From: a virus
Lineage: Duplodnaviria; Heunggongvirae; Uroviricota; Caudoviricetes
DNA length: 46,602 nucleotides
IMG/VR virus record: IMGVR_UViG_2724679140_000012
Strand: one strand, 5' to 3'
Position 1 is the first letter of the stretch. Every line of letters begins with the position of its first letter. The notes under the pieces are model-generated. The model did not search any database. It was not told where the DNA came from and was given only the letters and a program-made list of their open reading frames with translations. Shown here piece after piece: positions 4,990 to 17,376 of the stretch. The position numbers were made by a program, and so were the translations under genes.

Positions 4990-5852
4990 TCTCCTTTGAT
5001 GCGAATGCCAGCAAGCCAGTTTCTTATGCCGATATATTCAGCGTTCCTGAAACCACTTTTTACATATATAAATGGCAAGCGAAGATTGTGACCATTGACT
5101 GCCAGGTAATCTTTACAACCCTGTTCGGTGAAACAGCAGGTAACGAATTCATCAATATCTTTCACAGCAACGCGCCGCCACTTTTCTGGTGGCTCTCGAA
5201 AGTTTTCGTGAAGTAGTTCGAGACGACGACTTTGGCGTTTATTGGCTTCATTGCCATCTTCATCAACCCAGACAATCCGGTCATAGTCATAATCAGCATC
5301 AACAACGATTTCGCGCTTTTGATACACACAAAACATAGGGTCTGACGTTATTCGATTATCCTGTGTTCGAATATTTTCACCGATGATGCCAAACGAATCT
5401 GGTGCAGATTTTGTCTGCAACTCTTCGATACGTTCAGCCATCGCAGCACACTCTTCAAAGTTGCTTAATGCTTTTCGCTCCCATTCAGCGCATTGTTTTC
5501 TAAGCTCTGCAATCAGCTTGTCTTTGCCTTCAAGCTCAACGCGCAGCTTCCCTACCGTTAGCGCAATATCCTCGTTCTCCTGATCGCGGCGTTTTATGTA
5601 TTGCTGGTTTCTTTCCCGTTCATCCAGCAGCGCCTGCACTACTTCAGGGTTGAAAGCTGCGATATAACGAGCATTAGCAGCAGCTTTTTTCTGTCCATCA
5701 AACCCAGGCCATTTGATAACATCTTCGCATCGTTTATCACCTGGCGTATGCACCGCATACGTACCAGTACCCGGCGAAATAAATGCGACCCATTCGCCCT
5801 GTGTTGCCTGTTTTGCTAACTCACGCAGTGCCTGATAGTCAATCTTGCTCAC
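4986..5852 (-). CDS. Ea22-like early-region protein, 288 aa
   Basis: N-terminus MSKIDYQALRELAKQATQGEW is the Ea22-family signature as I recall it; coiled-coil middle. Confidence 0.8.
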   Translation of the reverse strand: MSKIDYQALRELAKQATQGEWVAFISPGTGTYAVHTPGDKRCEDVIKWPGFDGQKKAAANARYIAAFNPEVVQALLDERERNQQYIKRRDQENEDIALTVGKLRVELEGKDKLIAELRKQCAEWERKALSNFEECAAMAERIEELQTKSAPDSFGIIGENIRTQDNRITSDPMFCVYQKREIVVDADYDYDRIVWVDEDGNEANKRQSRRLELLHENFREPPEKWRRVAVKDIDEFVTCCFTEQGCKDYLAVNGHNLRLPFIYVKSGFRNAEYIGIRNWLAGIRIKGE

Positions 5853-9961: not shown

Positions 9962-10585
9962 TTATGCGACCTCGGAAGGAAGTCCAATCATCTTATTCAA
10001 ATCTTCTACCCGTAAAGCAGGAAGTGCTGCACTTGCTTTATCTGCTTCTTTTGGTAGCAACTCTTTGCTTTCAGGCCAGACCTCAATAAGTCGCTTAACT
10101 GTTGTGACTGAGTTCAAAGCAGCCCATACATTTGATTCGATATCCTTTTTCCTGGCTTCAAGTTTTTGTTGCAATGCGCAGATTTCATCAAACCTTTTTG
10201 TTATTTTGTGTTCTGCGTCAAACATGCATTTATCTTGGTCGGGGGTAGGGAGCAATATATCTTCACCGTTGCCGTCTTTTCCGTATGAATGCCAGCCAAC
10301 CCTTCTTCCTGATACAGTCAGATAAATCGAACTTGAACGGGCATCGCATGAGTAAAATGAACATCCCAGCTTTTCAAGTTCTTCGCTTATAGCCATTAAC
10401 TTGGATGCCAGCTGGTCCACTTCCTCAGTTTTCTTTTTCCCGCCAAACGCAACAACTCTGGCATCAAGTGCAAGCTGGTTCTTTAACTTTGTTACTTCTT
10501 CAAGTTCAGTGAATACCCCGGACTTAATTAAAGCGTTGCGTGCTATTACTTCTTTTATTGTCGTAGTTAAGCGGATTGATGACAT
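9962..10585 (-). CDS. Hypothetical protein, 207 aa
   Basis: ATG at 10585-10583 with GAGAGGA upstream; the track's longer ORF has an N-terminal extension without RBS. Confidence 0.7.
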   Translation of the reverse strand: MSSIRLTTTIKEVIARNALIKSGVFTELEEVTKLKNQLALDARVVAFGGKKKTEEVDQLASKLMAISEELEKLGCSFYSCDARSSSIYLTVSGRRVGWHSYGKDGNGEDILLPTPDQDKCMFDAEHKITKRFDEICALQQKLEARKKDIESNVWAALNSVTTVKRLIEVWPESKELLPKEADKASAALPALRVEDLNKMIGLPSEVA

Positions 10586-10721
10586 ATTAATTCCTCTCAA
10601 ATAAGTGGTTTGCTGCCTAATTTCATTTTCTGGCGACCAACACAAGTCACACCCATTTCACTGCGTGGCTTGCGGTAGTAAATACGGTTATTTATGTCAT
10701 TAAAAACCAGCATGAGCGTGG

Positions 10722-10988
10722 TTATTTTTTCTTTCCAAGAGATGGAAGCCCTCCAGAATAATCTGGACCACTTGAACGATGCATTTGATACAATATTGCG
10801 TTTTTGTTGGCGTTTAGTGGCTTTGTTGCGAAAGAAATTTTTTCTCGTTTTACATCTCTTATCATCATCAACTCACGTTCTGATGCTTTTGGATGATAAT
10901 CATTGATATGCTTCCATGCTGCCTTGGCGCTGAATTTTCTTCCACATAAAGGGAAATAGCATTTATATGCTACTTGTTTGCTAGTCAT
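10722..10988 (-). CDS. Hypothetical small protein with C2H2-like Cys/His motif, 88 aa
   Basis: ATG 2 nt after the N stop; motif C-x4-C-x11-H-x4-H (CYFPLCGRKFSAKAAWKHINDYH). Confidence 0.6.
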   Translation of the reverse strand: MTSKQVAYKCYFPLCGRKFSAKAAWKHINDYHPKASERELMMIRDVKREKISFATKPLNANKNAILYQMHRSSGPDYSGGLPSLGKKK

Positions 10989-10990
10989 TT

Positions 10991-11299
10991 CTATCTCGCC
11001 GTAATTGATTTCATTGACCTGTAACCAGCAGCATACAGTGCAACTTCAGGCAAACAAACGCTTCCGCCATTCGCATCTGTATTTGATTTACTGATGATGC
11101 CGAGTGATATTGCTTTTTCAGAAAGACTTAAACGCTTTCTCGGTTCTTCCTGAACAGCTTCCTCACTGTCTGTGCCGAAGATCGAATCGATGATGTTGCA
11201 GATGGAATCACGCTCGATAGCCAGCTTTCTGCGCCGCTCATGACGGCGAGTTTTGGCATTTCCTGCAAATGTTGATTTTCCGTACACGATTACCGTCAT
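10991..11299 (-). CDS. N: N-type transcription antiterminator, P22 gene-24-like
   Basis: N-terminal arginine-rich motif GNAKTRRHERRRKLAIERD matches the P22 N ARM peptide; ATG at 11299-11297 with GAGGAA 6 nt upstream; matching boxB upstream. Confidence 0.9.
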   Translation of the reverse strand: MTVIVYGKSTFAGNAKTRRHERRRKLAIERDSICNIIDSIFGTDSEEAVQEEPRKRLSLSEKAISLGIISKSNTDANGGSVCLPEVALYAAGYRSMKSITAR

Positions 11300-11418
11300 G
11301 ATGTTTTCCTCATGTGAAATGGCTTTGGTGGTGATGCGCCAGGTGCTGATCTTCTGGTTGCTGTCGTTGCAGCTGCAATTCACATCACCGCCAAACCCAT
11401 CTCGTTTGGTATCTGTTT

Positions 11419-11454
11419 GCGCTTTGTCAGCGCCCCATCGAAGTTAAAGAGCCT
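11419..11454 (-). promoter_or_regulatory. nutL: boxB hairpin (RNA GCGCUGACAAAGCGC, 11433-11419) preceded by boxA-like GCUCUUUAA (11452-11444)
   Basis: Minus-strand boxB matches the P22 boxB sequence as I recall it; boxA matches the CGCUCUUUAA consensus; lies between pL and N. Confidence 0.8.
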
Positions 11455-11479
11455 GCCAATCTGTTCCGTTTGGCTTCCA

Positions 11480-11700
11480 GCTTCCTGCTGATGGCGATAA
11501 TAATGAACCAATAGTTCGACATTATCAAGAACTATTGGTACGAAAATTTTGTGATTTATTAACTCTACGAAATATGATTTTGATATATAAGGAAATTTAT
11601 TTTTGTAAATGTTGCGGATGAAGGTTATGCGGCAGGGATCAGAATTTCGTGGTTTAGCAAGTTGTATCTATCAATTTTTCAATAAATACAATTGGTTGTG
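11480..11700 (-). promoter_or_regulatory. pL/oL region (exact promoter and operator positions not resolved)
   Basis: AT-rich intergenic region upstream of nutL and N; candidate -35 TTTACA / -10 TATATC on the minus strand; GTACGAAA-type motifs shared with oR. Confidence 0.4.
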
Positions 11701-11727
11701 TGTTTTTAGGTGGGGCGATCGTGAGGC

Positions 11728-11753
11728 AAAGAAAACCCGGCACTGAGGCCGGG
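11728..11753 (-). terminator. Intrinsic terminator ending the cI-side cassette before pL
   Basis: Minus-strand hairpin CCCGGCCUCAGUGCCGGG followed by UUUUCUUU. Confidence 0.65.
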
Positions 11754-11764
11754 TTATGTAGGCA

Positions 11765-11866
11765 TTATGCGGCTTTTTTGGTGTGTGCTGACGAGCGAGC
11801 CAGAATCTCGTTAATGAGAGATCTCAGGGTCATTGCATCTTTGTGCAGAGTGGACATGGTTTTCAT
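11765..11866 (-). CDS. Possible 33-aa peptide (MKTMSTLHKDAMTLRSLINEILARSSAHTKKAA)
   Basis: ATG at 11866-11864 with GAGGAA 5-6 nt upstream; TAA at 11767-11765; terminator immediately downstream. Confidence 0.45.
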   Translation of the reverse strand: MKTMSTLHKDAMTLRSLINEILARSSAHTKKAA

Positions 11867-11935
11867 TGCGTTTCCTCGGTTTATTTTATGGTACTAGCCT
11901 AGTTCAAATAGACTATATGAAATCTTGATTTACTA

Positions 11936-12316
11936 TTAAGGCCATTGGGTTGGTGGAAGATCGTGGGTTTTTATCTGCGTATTTGCTTCCACACATTTAT
12001 CATAGTCTAATTTCTCTACAGCAAGCAATAGTGATTCAGCATACATCAATCCTTGTTTGATGTTCATAACATTTATGCTTGCACTTGCGGCATCCATATC
12101 CTTTGCTGTCTCTACCATGTGCTCAAAGCTTTGAGCAATAGAGTCAACACCGTTTTTCATCCTTGTAAACACTAATTTTAGCTCATCAAGGCTTGGATTC
12201 GTTAGATCATACATCCCATGCATTCCATGTGCTTCGAATAACTCTGACAACGATCTAAGGGCGAAGTTCACAGAATCAATAACTTGGTCGTACTTTTTCT
12301 TATCAAGATCATTCAT
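11936..12316 (-). CDS. Hypothetical protein in the rexAB-equivalent slot, 126 aa
   Basis: AT-rich ORF between cI and pL, same orientation as cI; no TM segments; no resemblance to RexA/RexB/Nun that I can recognise. Confidence 0.75.
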   Translation of the reverse strand: MNDLDKKKYDQVIDSVNFALRSLSELFEAHGMHGMYDLTNPSLDELKLVFTRMKNGVDSIAQSFEHMVETAKDMDAASASINVMNIKQGLMYAESLLLAVEKLDYDKCVEANTQIKTHDLPPTQWP

Positions 12317-12433
12317 TAAAAATATAACCTTTTAACTATTTGATATTGCTGCATTTATATCAATATATGCATTTCACATATATCACCAAAACGTCTCTTC
12401 AGGCCACTGGTTACCAGCTATGTGACGATGAAG

Positions 12434-13141
12434 TCACGAATTTTTCAGCCACTCCCTTGCCTCGATGTCATCCAGATGACGAGATTGCTTCAGAATACCA
12501 GCCACATACTCCACCTTTGCTACTTGATGATAAGGCAACGTTATTGGCCTGTGGTCTTGGTTGATGCTTGTAAACTGGTATTCTCCATCTCTGTCATAGC
12601 CAAGAATCTTGATCATGTTGTGTCCTTCGATGGTTCTGACAAACACCTCATCACCCGGGAAGACTTTGGTGTTAGGCTCAATGAGTACATATTCTCCTGA
12701 TTTTATTCTGGGCCACATGCTGTCTCCTTTCACACGAAGACCAAAGGCATCAGGATCATCGCTATAAATTTTGAGCCACCCATCGCGCTCTTCGGTCATC
12801 TCGATGGCACCATCAACACCAAGAATTGCCTCACCAACCACGCGCACTAACCCTTTTTTTAATTTGCCAACAAATGAAAGAGTATCTTCATCATTCGCTC
12901 CATTTAACGAAGTGCCGTGCTGAAGCCAAACAACATCAACGTTTAGAAATTTCGCAAGCGCATTCATTTTTTCCTGACGCGGTAAAGACTCAGCATTAAA
13001 CCATTTGCTAACGCCTTTGGACGAAAGAGAAAGGGCACGGGCTATGGCCATCCCCCTACCATGTTCATCAAGACCAGCTTCTTTACAGGCTTGCGCTAGC
13101 CGCTGGGCGAATTCTTTGCGCACTTTTTCATTCTGAACCAT
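12434..13141 (-). CDS. cI: CI-type prophage repressor (HTH + S24 LexA-like peptidase domain), 235 aa
   Basis: C-terminal GDSMWPRIKSGEYVLIEP autocleavage-domain motif; N-terminal HTH; divergent from cro across an operator region. Confidence 0.9.
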   Translation of the reverse strand: MVQNEKVRKEFAQRLAQACKEAGLDEHGRGMAIARALSLSSKGVSKWFNAESLPRQEKMNALAKFLNVDVVWLQHGTSLNGANDEDTLSFVGKLKKGLVRVVGEAILGVDGAIEMTEERDGWLKIYSDDPDAFGLRVKGDSMWPRIKSGEYVLIEPNTKVFPGDEVFVRTIEGHNMIKILGYDRDGEYQFTSINQDHRPITLPYHQVAKVEYVAGILKQSRHLDDIEAREWLKNS

Positions 13142-14921: not shown

Positions 14922-17376
14922 TTTTTATGCGCCGCCCCATAGCATCGAGGCAGAGCAGGCGGTGATTGGTGGATTGCTTCTGGATGATGACAGCAGTGAG
15001 CGCGTCCAGAAAGTTCTGGCGATGCTGAAGCCTGATTCATTTTACAGCCGACCACACAAAATCCTTTTCGAAGAAATAACCTGAATGCACCGGGAGCAAA
15101 AGCCAGTAGATGGCCTGACGCTTTTCGATGAACTGGAGCGTAAATCGTTAACGGCGTCTGTTGGCGGTTTTGCTTATATCGCTGAGATCGCAAAGAACAC
15201 GCCAAGCGCAGCAAACATCGTTGCTTATGCAATGCAGGTTCGCGAAACCGCAATGGAACGCTACGCCATCAACCGCATGACTGAAGCGACGGAATTGCTC
15301 TATTCCCGCAACGGAATGACTGCAACGCAGAAGTACGAAGCTATTCAGGCGATTTTCACGCAACTGACAGACCATGCAAAAACCGGATCGCGTCGCGGCC
15401 TTCGCTCATTTGGTGAGGTCATGGAAGACTGGGTTAGCGACCTTGAGAAGCGATTTGACCCGTCAGGCGAACAACGAGGAATGAGCACAGGGATCCCATC
15501 GCTGGACAGGATGCTGTCACCGAAAGGTCTGGTGAAAGGCTCTCTGTTCGTCATTGGCGCTCGCCCTAAGATGGGGAAAGCGCAACCGCTTAATTCACGC
15601 ATTTTGCTTGCTGATGGTTCATGGACAACATTTCGTGACGTATGTGTTGGAGATTCCCTAGCATCAGTGGATGGACAACCATCATTCGTGTCTGGAGTTT
15701 TTCCTCAAGGGGAGCGAGATATTTACCGAGTTACGTTCTCTGACGGAAGAACCGTTGATTGCGCGGATGATCATTTGTGGGAAATTCATAGTAACCGTAT
15801 TACCGGTGGCGTTGATGTTGTAGACACCTGCCGCCTACGGGACATGATGGAATGCGTTCGCTATCAAAGCCGCATTCATGTTCCTGGTATTAGCGGTGAC
15901 TTCGGATTGCCTGTTGATTTAGGGATTAGCCCATGGCTGTTAGGTGCGTTACTTGGCGATGGAAATCTTGCAGGTACGCCACGAATCAGCATGACGGAAC
16001 CATACATCATTGAGCGAGTAAGATCTGAAGTGGGTGACGATATTGAAGTCAGGCATGTTTCTGGCTGCGATTACTCCCTATCTCACAAGTTTAGCCGCAA
16101 ATTATCTCTTACGCGGGTTATGCAACGGCTTGGTATCTACGGCCGGATGTCAGAGATTAAAATTATCCCGGATATTATTTTTTCTGCTGATAAGCAAACT
16201 CGTATTGATGTTCTATGCGGATTACTTGAAACCGATGGTTGGGTTGAAGGAAATAATGCCCTGCGCTTTAGCTCGGCAAGCAAGTTCCTGTCAGATGGTG
16301 TAAAGCGGCTGGTGCATTCTCTTGGTGGCGTGTGTCGTATGACAACCAAACAGGAGCCGAAATTCAGTTATAAGGGAGAAATGCGCAAAGGTATGGATGC
16401 CCATATTTGCGCAATCAGGTTGCCTGATGAGGTTCTATCACACATAAAATCTCCACGCCTGAAGCAAAAATTCACTGCAAAACGCATCAAAACAAGTGCG
16501 CCTGTTATCACGTCGGTTGAGTATATTGGACGTGAAGAGTGCATTTGCATCATGGTATCCCACGAGAGACATTTGTATGCAACTGACGGATACATTCTAA
16601 CCCACAACACCACGCTATACAGCCAGATGGCAATCAATTGCGCAGTGCATGAGAAAAAGCCCGCTCTGATGTTCAGCCTTGAAATGCCAGGTGATCAGAT
16701 ACTGGAAAAACTGGTAGGGCAGAAGTCTGGTGTTAACCCGAATATTTTTTACCTTCCGGCGACAAATGACGCCGATGACGGCTATCAGGGTGATTACGAT
16801 GGTGACTTCAACAGGGCGATCGAAACAGCCAATCGCTTGAGTGAAATCGACATGCTTTACATCGACGACACGCCGGGATTATCTCTGGCTCAAATCGTCA
16901 GCGAAAGCCGTCGAATCAAGCGAGAAAAAGGATGTGTTGGCATGATTCTGGTCGATTACCTGACACTAATGACCGCTGAGAAGGCCGATCGCAACGACCT
17001 TGCTTACGGCATGATCACCAAAGGACTGAAGAACCTTGCCAAAGAGCTTGATTGCGTTGTTGTGCTTCTGACACAGCTTAACCGCGCACTGGAAAGCCGA
17101 ACCAATAAACGCCCATTACCAAGTGACTCACGAGATACAGGGCAGATTGAACAGGATTGCGATTATTGGGTCGGGATCCATCGTGAAGGCGCTTTTGATG
17201 ACAGTGTTCCACCTGGGGAAACTGAACTAATCCTTCGTCTCAATCGTCATGGCAATACCGGCACGGTGTATTGCATTCAGGCAAATGGCTCTATTTATGA
17301 CACAGACCAACAGTCCGCTGAAATGCGCCGCCGTGAACGCGAGGAACCGCAATCCAAGAAGAAAGGAGGATTCTGA
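14911..17376 (+). CDS. DnaB-family replicative helicase (P22 gene-12-like) containing an intein; reading frame interrupted by in-frame TGA at 15082-15084
   Basis: N-terminal PPHSIEAEQAVIGGLLLDD and VGGFAYIAEIAKNTPSAANI align with E. coli DnaB; Walker A GARPKMGK is split from TTLYSQ by a 343-aa insertion; ORF track shows 14896..15084 and 15085..17376 in the same frame separated by TGA. Confidence 0.85.
15580..16608 (+). other. Intein (343 aa) with LAGLIDADG homing-endonuclease domain inserted in the helicase P-loop
   Basis: Insertion directly after GK of Walker A; ends THN followed by extein Thr; two LAGLIDADG-like motifs (LLGALLGDGNL, LCGLLETDGWV); first residue Ala; Trp in block B (DHLW), Cys in block F (CICIMV), Thr before HN. 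Confidence 0.8.

Follow-up and report, generated by a model that had tools for sequence, protein, structure and literature searches.

The interval between cI and N is a hotspot of mosaic diversity that harbours rexAB and bstA, and it is transcribed from the highly active promoter of the repressor (PMC8585504). The Rex system of lambda is reported to couple RexA (279 aa), a sensor inside the cell, to RexB (144 aa), which forms an ion channel, and BstA, known from the Salmonella prophage BTP1, occurs in diverse Gram-negative prophages with its own Rho-independent terminator and a self-directed modulating element, aba (PMC8585504). BstA and the other single-gene occupants likewise lie downstream of the repressor, with which they presumably share a promoter. 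The nun gene is also found in this interval. Here, we describe a new, uncharacterised occupant of the hotspot, a two-gene cassette that is a candidate lysogen-expressed anti-phage or host-modifying module, a reading that is reasonable but unproven. It differs from BstA, where one protein is accompanied by an anti-BstA element at the DNA level, in encoding two proteins outside any Pfam family, and from Rex in that both of its products appear to be soluble, one of them being a 33-aa peptide.

The cassette was analysed in a window of 46,602 nucleotides (the whole stretch of DNA under study, from a virus of the Caudoviricetes, IMG/VR record IMGVR_UViG_2724679140_000012), where the order on the minus strand is cI, a 126-aa ORF, a 33-aa ORF and a terminator, all upstream of pL, nutL and N. 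The cI-type repressor gene (12434..13141, minus strand; Peptidase_S24, E = 4e-16, plus HTH_3; phrog_4, transcriptional repressor) is labelled 'S24 family peptidase' by PGAP. Directly downstream on the same strand lies the 126-aa ORF (gene 1, 11936..12316), and 3' of it the 33-aa ORF (gene 2, 11765..11866), followed by the terminator. A scan gave a pL-like promoter match at 11500-11528 (minus strand), and N was recognised by an N_peptide match (10991..11383); upstream of N are what we take, from known nut sites, to be the nutL elements, with boxA at about 11443-11452 and a P22-type boxB, GCGCTGACAAAGCGC, at 11419-11433. An Rfam scan of positions 11300-12600 matched no RNA family. A previous sequence-only reading of this DNA had described two ORFs on the cI strand between the repressor and pL/nutL in a conspicuously AT-rich cassette. 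Both ORFs were found where it had placed them, and the base composition agrees, with 37.4% GC for the cassette (11758-12382) against 46.3% for the whole window, among the lowest 0.2% of 625-bp windows.

The cassette shares its frame with lambda rexA-rexB, which are likewise two cI-strand genes between the cI stop codon and tIMM. On the downstream side, the intrinsic terminator (11724..11755, minus strand) consists of a hairpin, AACCCGGCCTCAGTGCCGGGTT, at 11734-11755 and a T-rich tail, TTCTTTGCCT, at about 11724-11733. The sequence directly 3' of rexB in lambda is nearly the same, and the downstream flank matches too; the terminator is lambda's own tIMM with the adjoining flank, and would close the cI-cassette transcription unit. 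Comparison with lambda indicates that this flank (11640..11723, minus strand; AACCAATTGTATTTATTGAAAAAT..GATAGATACAACT..CTAAAC) is homologous to the rexB-to-OL spacer, and it belongs to the conserved lambdoid frame, outside the cassette. A strong terminator, with hairpin and T-run, follows the peptide gene at every locus examined, in all lineages.

On the upstream side lies a 28-nt remnant (12383..12410, minus strand), the fossil 3' terminus of a lambda-type cI gene (CCAGTGGCCTGAAGAGACGTTTTGGTGA, ...SQWPEETFW*); the lambda gene itself ends in ...CAGTGGCCTGAAGAGACGTTTGGCTGA. The same sequence is the genuine cI end at loci L002 and L003, 66 nt ahead of the cassette ATG, and it evidently marks the upstream recombination joint in the window. 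In prophage L002, cI-cro is 98.3% identical to lambda and the homology ends at the cI stop codon. Since lambda homology stops there and the terminator and its flank correspond to the tIMM region, the cassette replaces rexA-rexB exactly in lambda-immunity prophages, from the cI stop codon to tIMM. Between the same joints, the related Stx phage AU5Stx1 carries a different insert and lambda carries rexAB, and the deposited immunity regions of wild lambda-immunity phages (EF120457-9) share cI-cro but not the cassette. The homology break in L002 and the match to tIMM thus support the earlier proposal of a genuine two-gene cassette in the rexAB slot of lambda, and two details of that proposal can be refined. 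The strong terminator it placed at 11728-11753 is real but was set a few bases off, and the 117-bp AT-rich spacer it described behind cI is composite, with an AT-rich leader (12317-12382) that stands and a segment (12383-12410) that is the cI fossil.

Because it lies in the cI-to-tIMM transcription unit, the cassette is most likely co-transcribed with cI in the lysogen, starting at pRM, and a leader promoter of its own may contribute; expression from pRM in the lysogen is expected for rexA-rexB as well, and for the cassette it is inferred from position. The terminator scan listed no minus-strand terminator between cI and the cassette. A hairpin overlapping the cI stop codon, GTGACttcatcGTCAC (12422..12437, minus strand, from reading the sequence), appears in that scan only as a plus-strand terminator-like site and is not expected to be a barrier to cI read-through, since it lacks a minus-strand T-tract. 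The cassette-specific leader (12317..12382, minus strand; 66 nt, 19.7% GC) is carried along with the cassette across three cI types. It contains an extended -10-like element, TGATATAAA, at 12354-12362, a TTGATA-17-AATAGT match at 12335-12363 and two inverted repeats, TTGATAT-N10-ATATCAA and ATATATG-N7-CATATAT. TGnnATAAA motifs similar to TGATATAAA occur in three other lineages, promoter-like matches being overall at chance level (5 in the region against 5.4 expected in shuffled sequence, with no excess), and the leader is a possible promoter of the cassette's own.

Gene 1 encodes WP_021539111.1, a member of the unannotated orphan family phrog_16322, which it matches from end to end (E = 8.2e-89, residues 1-126 on profile positions 1-126 of 126). 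The product is acidic (pI 4.8) and has no membrane-spanning segment (maximum 19-residue hydropathy 0.81), and its AF2 model is a helical bundle (pLDDT 89.8, pTM 0.81); we predict with confidence that it is a soluble acidic helical bundle. Residues G31, G34, P41, N85, Q88, G89, L96, D104 and C108 are conserved family-wide, and most full-length members carry a tryptophan at the C-terminal end (W125 in the window protein). When 1.84 billion representatives were searched exhaustively with an HMMER profile, 18 clusters at 50% identity were recovered; at 90% identity there are 23, with sizes of 43-134 aa across clusters and no fusions. Carriers make up 3/100,044 species representatives. The family is tiny, orphan and very rare. 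Truncation of gene 1, as suggested by widespread 74-aa database entries, was considered and rejected, these entries being alternative start calls on an intact gene.

Pfam, NCBIfam and PADLOC scans of both products gave nothing significant, in particular no likeness to a toxin or antitoxin family, and the only PHROGs match was the unannotated phrog_16322. No DNA-binding domain was found in either product with Pfam, nor a catalytic signature in the bundle protein. The same four sets of scans on Aeromonas homologues yielded no informative family; a coiled-coil-level LmuB match (E = 0.007) was the only one of an Aeromonas homologue to PADLOC-DB v2, and the window products had none. A profile search of PDB sequences with the gene 1 family found nothing better than E = 0.02, and fold searches with the gene 1 model retrieved generic helical bundles only. 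By hhalign, the family aligned to RexA, RexB and SieB with probabilities of 0.35%, 0.11% and 0.03%, respectively, and the comparison of the larger protein with TomB/YmoB, of the Hha/TomB pair, was negative. The products are thus as unlike RexA, RexB and SieB as the sequence-only reading had held, and the cassette has no sequence relationship to rexA-rexB (hhalign below 1%). Literature searches by protein accession, PHROG id and UniProt id found no paper that mentions either product, and none of the homologs, fold matches or papers ties the gene 1 family to any function.

Gene 2 encodes a basic amphipathic helix of 33 aa, MKTMSTLHKDAMTLRSLINEILARSSAHTKKAA (pI 10.5), from an ORF that PGAP leaves uncalled. 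The peptide adjoins gene 1 in 49/50 loci, down to 36% identity, and the exception (1/50) is a metagenome contig in which a homopolymer has lost 1 nt. Its length across the family is 32-37 residues, and both the peptide and its Shine-Dalgarno (SD) sequence are conserved from E. coli to Aeromonas, Proteus and Xenorhabdus. Substitutions in the gene show purifying selection in the coding frame only, with pS of 0.57-1.0 against pN of 0.14-0.40. Both ORFs are thus evidently real genes, beyond chance, given the end-to-end match to phrog_16322, the conservation of the peptide beside gene 1 and the frame-specific purifying selection. A read-through fusion of the two, which are in frame in the window, was also considered and rejected, because they are separated by four stop codons and relatives do not keep the frame relation. 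In all lineages the peptide ends in [K/R/Q][K/R][A/V]A (KKAA, QKAA, RKAA, KKVA or KRAA), a tail that seems to resemble ClpX degrons; tabulated ClpX recognition tails include those of ssrA (...LAA), RseA (...VAA) and MuA (...RRKKAI) (degron table, PMC8138137). Across the family, isoelectric points are 4.5-5.4 for the bundle and 8.3-10.6 for the peptide, and neither has a transmembrane segment.

The two genes also differ in their predicted translation. The SD sequence of gene 1, in the leader, is weak and distant, whereas that of the peptide gene is strong (GAGGA, 11873..11877, minus strand, 6-nt spacing); in 9/11 loci the SD energies are -5.6 to -8.8 kcal/mol for the peptide against -0.7 to -4.1 kcal/mol for gene 1. 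The 69-nt gap between the genes, which ranges from 59 to 84 nt across loci, contains a stem-loop (11895..11915, minus strand) that is weak in this copy (-4.6 kcal/mol). Relatives have a hairpin of different stem sequence at the same position, with 25-34 nt between its 3' end and the peptide ATG and, in some lineages, with T-runs. Such a hairpin is present in 10/12 lineages; compared with shuffled sequences the combined p is about 4e-7, with incomplete independence among the lineages. It could lower the peptide mRNA relative to that of gene 1, which would be at odds with a simple design of 'antitoxin in excess'.

The gene pair is not confined to the rexAB slot, and has been seen in six different prophage positions. 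In E. coli it accompanies at least three repressor types, in Pectobacterium it follows mnt, in Klebsiella it sits at a prophage edge, and further copies lie in a nin region and beside an O-antigen-type (MBOAT) acyltransferase. Aeromonas phage AsXd-1 has the order int-dinI-cassette, and a phage contig with the order cI-DUF3024-cassette-N carries a cassette matching that of Proteus terrae. Altogether, phages of Klebsiella, Pantoea, Pectobacterium, Proteus, Xenorhabdus and Aeromonas carry the pair, including at prophage ends. Since the same pair occurs with other repressors and at unrelated prophage positions, the region appears to be a self-contained, horizontally mobile, AT-rich moron operon, and it shows replacement in homologous genomes, a distinct base composition and its own terminator downstream.

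What such a pair might do can be approached through described systems that resemble it. Tab of Pseudomonas phage JBD26 is an 83-aa orphan moron protein that is constitutively expressed from the prophage and binds a phage protein, and its linked neutralising protein, anti-Tab, is expressed only in the lytic cycle (PMC10884400). A small non-enzymatic moron defence with a linked modulator is the type of mechanism we propose for the cassette; the likeness is one of description, and Tab/anti-Tab differ in lying in a late operon between terminase genes, in another host and phage group. Lambda CIII, the product of a lytic/early pL gene, is a small amphipathic-helix peptide that competes for the host AAA+ protease FtsH. 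It offers a lead only, in that the cassette peptide too is a short, cytoplasmic amphipathic helix, lambdoid and immunity-proximal, with a plausible host-protease contact; CIII differs in having no partner protein, whereas the cassette peptide ends in a tail like those recognised by ClpX and is a constant companion of the bundle protein.

We tentatively favour a non-enzymatic protein-peptide exclusion or abortive-infection module. Its two cytoplasmic products, always inherited together, would be a weakly translated acidic bundle and a strongly translated basic peptide; the peptide would bind the bundle protein and restrain or tune its activity, and proteolysis would keep the peptide short-lived. 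An infecting phage that disturbs host gene expression or proteolysis would then shift the peptide level and free the bundle protein, which would bind a phage or host protein stoichiometrically, not catalytically. As an outcome, the superinfecting phage would be blocked or the infection aborted, and the lysogen population protected. Complex formation, peptide lability and an anti-phage role are what we infer for the pair, the logic behind the model being charge complementarity, SD asymmetry and the invariant basic-small-Ala tail. If a degron-tailed micro-peptide does control the bundle, this would be a new design in prophage-encoded immunity and another case of a key small gene missed by automated annotation. 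In its most specific form the proposal would be an undescribed prophage immunity switch, unrelated to RexAB, BstA and catalogued defences, with a ClpXP-timed 33-residue micro-peptide as the sole restraint on a non-enzymatic bundle effector and infection altering peptide synthesis or proteolysis to bring about abortive infection or exclusion. We regard this form as improbable; were it true, the peptide would be the smallest known protein 'antitoxin'. A defence of broad use would not usually be confined to 3/100,044 species representatives. Non-defence cargo is also housed in the cI-N slot and at other moron sites, which counts against a defence reading.

A peptide-tuned bundle could instead bind a host regulator or enzyme and act in lysogenic conversion or host physiology, altering stress tolerance, biofilm, virulence or SOS and not phage sensitivity. 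Small helical modulators acting on host factors include anti-sigma factors, anti-adaptors and Hha/TomB-type proteins, and the cassette does occur where conversion genes are classically found, namely opposite tail-fibre genes at the ends of prophages, beside the MBOAT acyltransferase and beside dinI and umuDC-like genes; we hold such a role to be possible, if not particularly likely. The RecA/SOS-linked neighbours (a DinI-like gene, umuD/umuC-like genes) would also suit a pair that modulates the carrier prophage's own lysis-lysogeny switch or RecA/SOS signalling, with a protease-timed peptide giving temporal control, as would the co-orientation and contiguity with cI or mnt in three lineages. 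RexA, reported to bias the lambda switch, offers a precedent, and a preprint reports that RexA and RexB assist the lysogenic-to-lytic transition (bioRxiv 10.1101/2021.04.19.439022). However, the cassette is also found with unrelated repressors, its copies in a nin region and at prophage ends have no repressor gene near them, and neither product has a DNA-binding domain, so that a role in the switch seems unlikely.

The pair also invites comparison with type II toxin-antitoxin systems that have a protease-labile antitoxin: the two cassette genes are adjacent and obligately inherited together, the small basic product has a strong SD and ends like a degron, and the larger one has a weak SD. In a pure addiction module, growth would be inhibited by a stable bundle and rescued by its labile antidote, the peptide, which would stabilise the prophage with no anti-phage role, and the obligate co-retention of the two genes and their asymmetry in SD strength, with the degron-like tail on the peptide, would fit. 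Yet there is no homology to toxin-antitoxin families, the genes are uncoupled by a gap plus hairpin that is atypical in layout, and neither peptide genes standing alone nor toxin genes in decay were encountered. A DNA-binding domain would not fit into the 33 residues of the peptide, and classic autoregulation is unlikely; we consider pure addiction distinctly unlikely on these grounds. Finally, the small ORF, or both, might be chance reading frames or decaying, functionless remnants, as the omission of the 33-aa ORF by PGAP and annotations with only a 74-aa gene 1 could suggest. Against the end-to-end PHROG match, the conservation of the peptide and its SD from E. coli to Xenorhabdus, the synonymous excess in the coding frame only and the alternative starts behind the 74-aa entries, this is scarcely credible.

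For any of these roles, the cassette offers a cleanly delimited rexAB replacement of about 625 bp. Its joints are defined, both products are orphans, and prophages that carry it can be paired with natural counterparts that lack it; the promoter from which the interval is expected to be transcribed is among the most active in a lysogen. Being so delimited, it is a small, portable test object for a new lysogen-expressed function; should it confer no phenotype, it would be one more rare orphan moron. In one prophage, the cassette is co-resident with a SieB gene.

The cassette lies where the sequence-only reading had placed it, on the cI strand between cI and the pL/nutL region, and ORF, domain and terminator scans confirmed two ORFs closed by a terminator. 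On the minus strand, cI (12434-13141, encoding Peptidase_S24 and HTH domains) is followed by a 117-nt interval, gene 1 (126-aa ORF, 11936-12316, phrog_16322), a 69-nt gap, gene 2 (33-aa ORF, 11765-11866, conserved beside gene 1) and a strong hairpin with a T-tail. A pL-like promoter match and a P22-type nutL occur about 200 nt past the terminator, and N at 10991-11383 (N_peptide, E 1e-36). The layout first proposed thus stood, with small corrections of coordinates, the terminator hairpin being at 11734-11755. The AT-richness ascribed to the cassette was also borne out (37.4% GC vs 46.3% for the window, bottom 0.2% among windows of equal size). The window is a lambdoid prophage of E. coli; E. 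coli strain IGC_RcoliRes_1.1 is 100% identical to it across the 901 bp queried. In that strain, the PGAP annotation lists the 126-aa product as WP_021539111.1, a hypothetical protein, and leaves the 33-aa ORF uncalled.

With high confidence, the cassette occupies the rexAB frame. The window terminator and about 90 nt past it are near-identical to the lambda sequence after rexB (tIMM and the rexB-to-OL spacer). In L002, another E. coli prophage, with 98.3% identity to lambda over cI-cro, homology breaks off at lambda 37226, one base past the last base of cI (37227); 66 nt separate the cI stop from the cassette ATG. This break at the cI stop, together with the tIMM terminator, indicates that the cassette precisely replaces rexA-rexB in lambda-immunity phages, in agreement with the slot initially suggested. 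The window repressor is of a type other than lambda's cI, and a 28-nt stretch from the 3' end of a lambda-type cI gene (..QWPEETFW*) survives at 12383-12410, between the window cI and the cassette; this segment is a fossil left by the recombination through which the cassette was acquired. The AT-rich spacer of 117 nt described earlier is therefore present, but only 12317-12382 (19.7% GC) is a cassette-specific leader. The related Stx1 phage AU5Stx1 carries the same fossil and terminator around a shorter, different insert, which makes this a true swap site. That insert (L016 2535-3000, about 330 bp, with an annotated ORF of 47 aa) is a second uncharacterised occupant of the slot. The cI-N interval has been described as a mosaic-diversity hotspot that houses rexAB and bstA, transcription coming from the highly active repressor promoter (PMC8585504).

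The cassette is not confined to this slot. In E. coli, identical copies accompany at least three repressor types, and one prophage carries sieB and ral as well as the cassette. Among the more distant copies, those of a group of viral contigs (with a cassette matching the Proteus terrae one) stand between cI/DUF3024 and an N-like gene, and the Pectobacterium copy comes right behind mnt, within an arc-ant immunity region. Others are found at the edge of Klebsiella-type prophages (host genes on one side, tail-fibre or umuDC-like genes on the other), between P and Q of a nin region, close to one gene for tail-fibre assembly and another for an MBOAT acyltransferase, and, in Aeromonas phage AsXd-1, between int-dinI and tail-fibre genes. 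A strong terminator closes every copy, and the upstream sequences differ from genus to genus. We conclude with high confidence that the cassette is a mobile moron. The DUF3024 gene (4357-4698 in L042, a Proteus-type copy), between cI and the cassette, is a further uncharacterised gene of the same lysogenic transcription unit. Outside the cI slot, some neighbours are SOS/RecA-linked, namely DinI-like (L004 4386-4649, AsXd-1) and umuD/umuC-like genes (L005 5936-7622, Klebsiella prophages); together with the S24-type repressors, these may be a coincidence or may point to a connection with RecA signalling.

Over its whole length, the 126-aa protein aligns with phrog_16322, a family of unknown function (E 8e-89). 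A word-indexed search of 5.8 billion proteins gave 23 clusters (90% identity), each of them from Enterobacterales, and an exhaustive HMMER profile search, run against 1.84 billion representatives at 50% identity, gave only 18 relatives of 43-134 aa, none of them fused to other domains. With each species represented by a single genome, the family occurred in three of 100,044 (two Xenorhabdus species and Proteus terrae). The PHROG match and the few relatives in such large searches therefore indicate a real but rare orphan family.

The 33-aa ORF lies directly downstream of the large gene in 49 of the 50 loci carrying the latter, and is kept where identity of the large protein falls to 46% (AsXd-1), 39% (Xenorhabdus) or 36-37% (the contigs with the Proteus terrae-matching cassette). 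The sole exception is a metagenome contig in which an A8 run has lost one base. Both lysine codons of the peptide tail sit in this A6-A8 homopolymer (L013 ~2010-2020 vs L011 ~5545-5552, two related loci), so that the frameshift hits the degron-like tail alone; the A7 variant may stem from a sequencing error or mark a site prone to slippage. Compared in pairs, the 33-codon versions gave 0.57-1.0 synonymous vs 0.14-0.40 non-synonymous differences per site, an excess absent from shifted frames, and the peptide gene has its own strong Shine-Dalgarno (SD) sequence. We are highly confident that the operon is a real two-gene unit.

A confident AlphaFold2 model of the 126-aa protein, built from a diverse 26-sequence alignment (pLDDT 89.8, pTM 0.81), consists of four helices, three of them long (3-36, 43-71, 74-101) and the last one short (105-117). 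Conserved family-wide are G31, G34 and P41 (in the helix 1-2 loop), N85, Q88, G89 and L96 (in helix 3), D104 and C108; most full-length members also have a near-C-terminal tryptophan. Residues spaced as N-x-x-Q-G-x-x-x-A point to a face on which helices may pack tightly. The peptide is basic (32-37 aa, pI 8.3-10.6), with a heptad-like hydrophobic seam (L7, A11, L14, I18, I21), and always ends in KKAA, QKAA, RKAA, KKVA or KRAA. As a lead, this degron-like tail resembles C-terminal ClpX signals such as ssrA ..ALAA, RseA ..VAA and MuA RRKKAI (PMC8138137).

The terminator scan found no minus-strand terminator between cI and the cassette, which makes co-transcription with cI the expected default in lysogens, by analogy with lambda, where rexAB are co-transcribed with cI in lysogens. 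Overall, expression in lysogens is probable. A hairpin over the cI stop codon (12421-12438) has a T-run on the plus strand only (TGTGACGATGAAGTCACG AATTTTTCAG), and hence could stop antisense transcription through the cassette towards cI. An autonomous promoter, required because the cassette also occurs in stand-alone contexts, is plausible: the leader carries a putative extended -10-like element, TGATATAAA (12354-12362), and a TTGATA-17-AATAGT match, and TGnnATAAA recurs in three other lineages at a similar distance from the ATG, but shuffled sequence gave promoter-like matches at least as often as the window region did. In 9 of 11 lineages, SDs are strong and well spaced for the peptide gene (-5.6 to -8.8 kcal/mol) vs weak and poorly spaced for the large gene (-0.7 to -4.1). 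An intercistronic stem-loop stands at a fixed position in 10 of 12 lineages (combined p ~4e-7 vs shuffles, lineages not being fully independent), its 3' end lying 25-34 nt upstream of the peptide start codon in copies of the Enterobacteriaceae type and 16-18 nt upstream in those of the Proteus type (L042/L045); the two lineages lacking it are those with 25-27-nt gaps. Its stem sequences vary, T-runs follow it in some copies, and the window version is weak (-4.6 kcal/mol). From sequence, the hairpin could either attenuate or stabilise transcripts. In the relatives L005, L011 and L014 (each 5370-5385), the last codon of gene 1 (W), its stop and the next bases form TGGTAGAAT, a near-consensus extended -10 that could drive a separate peptide-gene transcript, much as pLIT drives that of rexB in lambda. 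The window copy (TGGCCTTAATAG) lacks it and has a TTAATA-16-TATAGT match at 11912-11939.

The obligate gene pairing, charge complementarity, strong peptide translation and degron-like tail, and the adjoining of an amphipathic peptide to a bundle with a conserved packing face, are consistent with a protein-peptide switch: a short-lived peptide would hold in check a binding protein that lacks catalytic activity. Its role would be the exclusion of other phages, favoured by the rexAB slot and by the comparable site behind mnt. Tab/anti-Tab is an example of defence by binding alone among small orphan moron proteins (PMC10884400), and the cassette might defend likewise, without catalysis. The evidence being circumstantial, we propose this combined reading tentatively, as a possibility short of an even chance. 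A factor acting on host physiology or in conversion is somewhat unlikely. Modulation of the prophage's own switch or of SOS would fit the RecA-linked cI, UmuD-like and DinI-like neighbours, but these may be coincidental, and we consider it unlikely; a pure addiction module is quite improbable, and non-function extremely so.

An accessory cassette in the cI-N hotspot is a known kind of thing, and literature and database searches found no name for either protein. Neither the gene family nor the pairing of a protein with a micro-peptide has a described counterpart; in our view there is a modest chance of the cassette being a new type of peptide-gated immunity module.

Elsewhere in the window, a DnaB-type replicative helicase gene (15085-17376, plus strand) is interrupted by an intein-like insert, its DnaB_C match falling in two stretches around a LAGLIDADG_3 domain (residues ~376-422). 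PGAP calls it an incomplete pseudogene in the identical genome, probably because of this insert. In the pL operon downstream of N, the minus strand encodes an 88-aa orphan (10722-10988, phrog_20899) with a weak zinc-finger-like signal and an Nmad5 'nucleotide modification associated' protein (9962-10645, E 4e-69).
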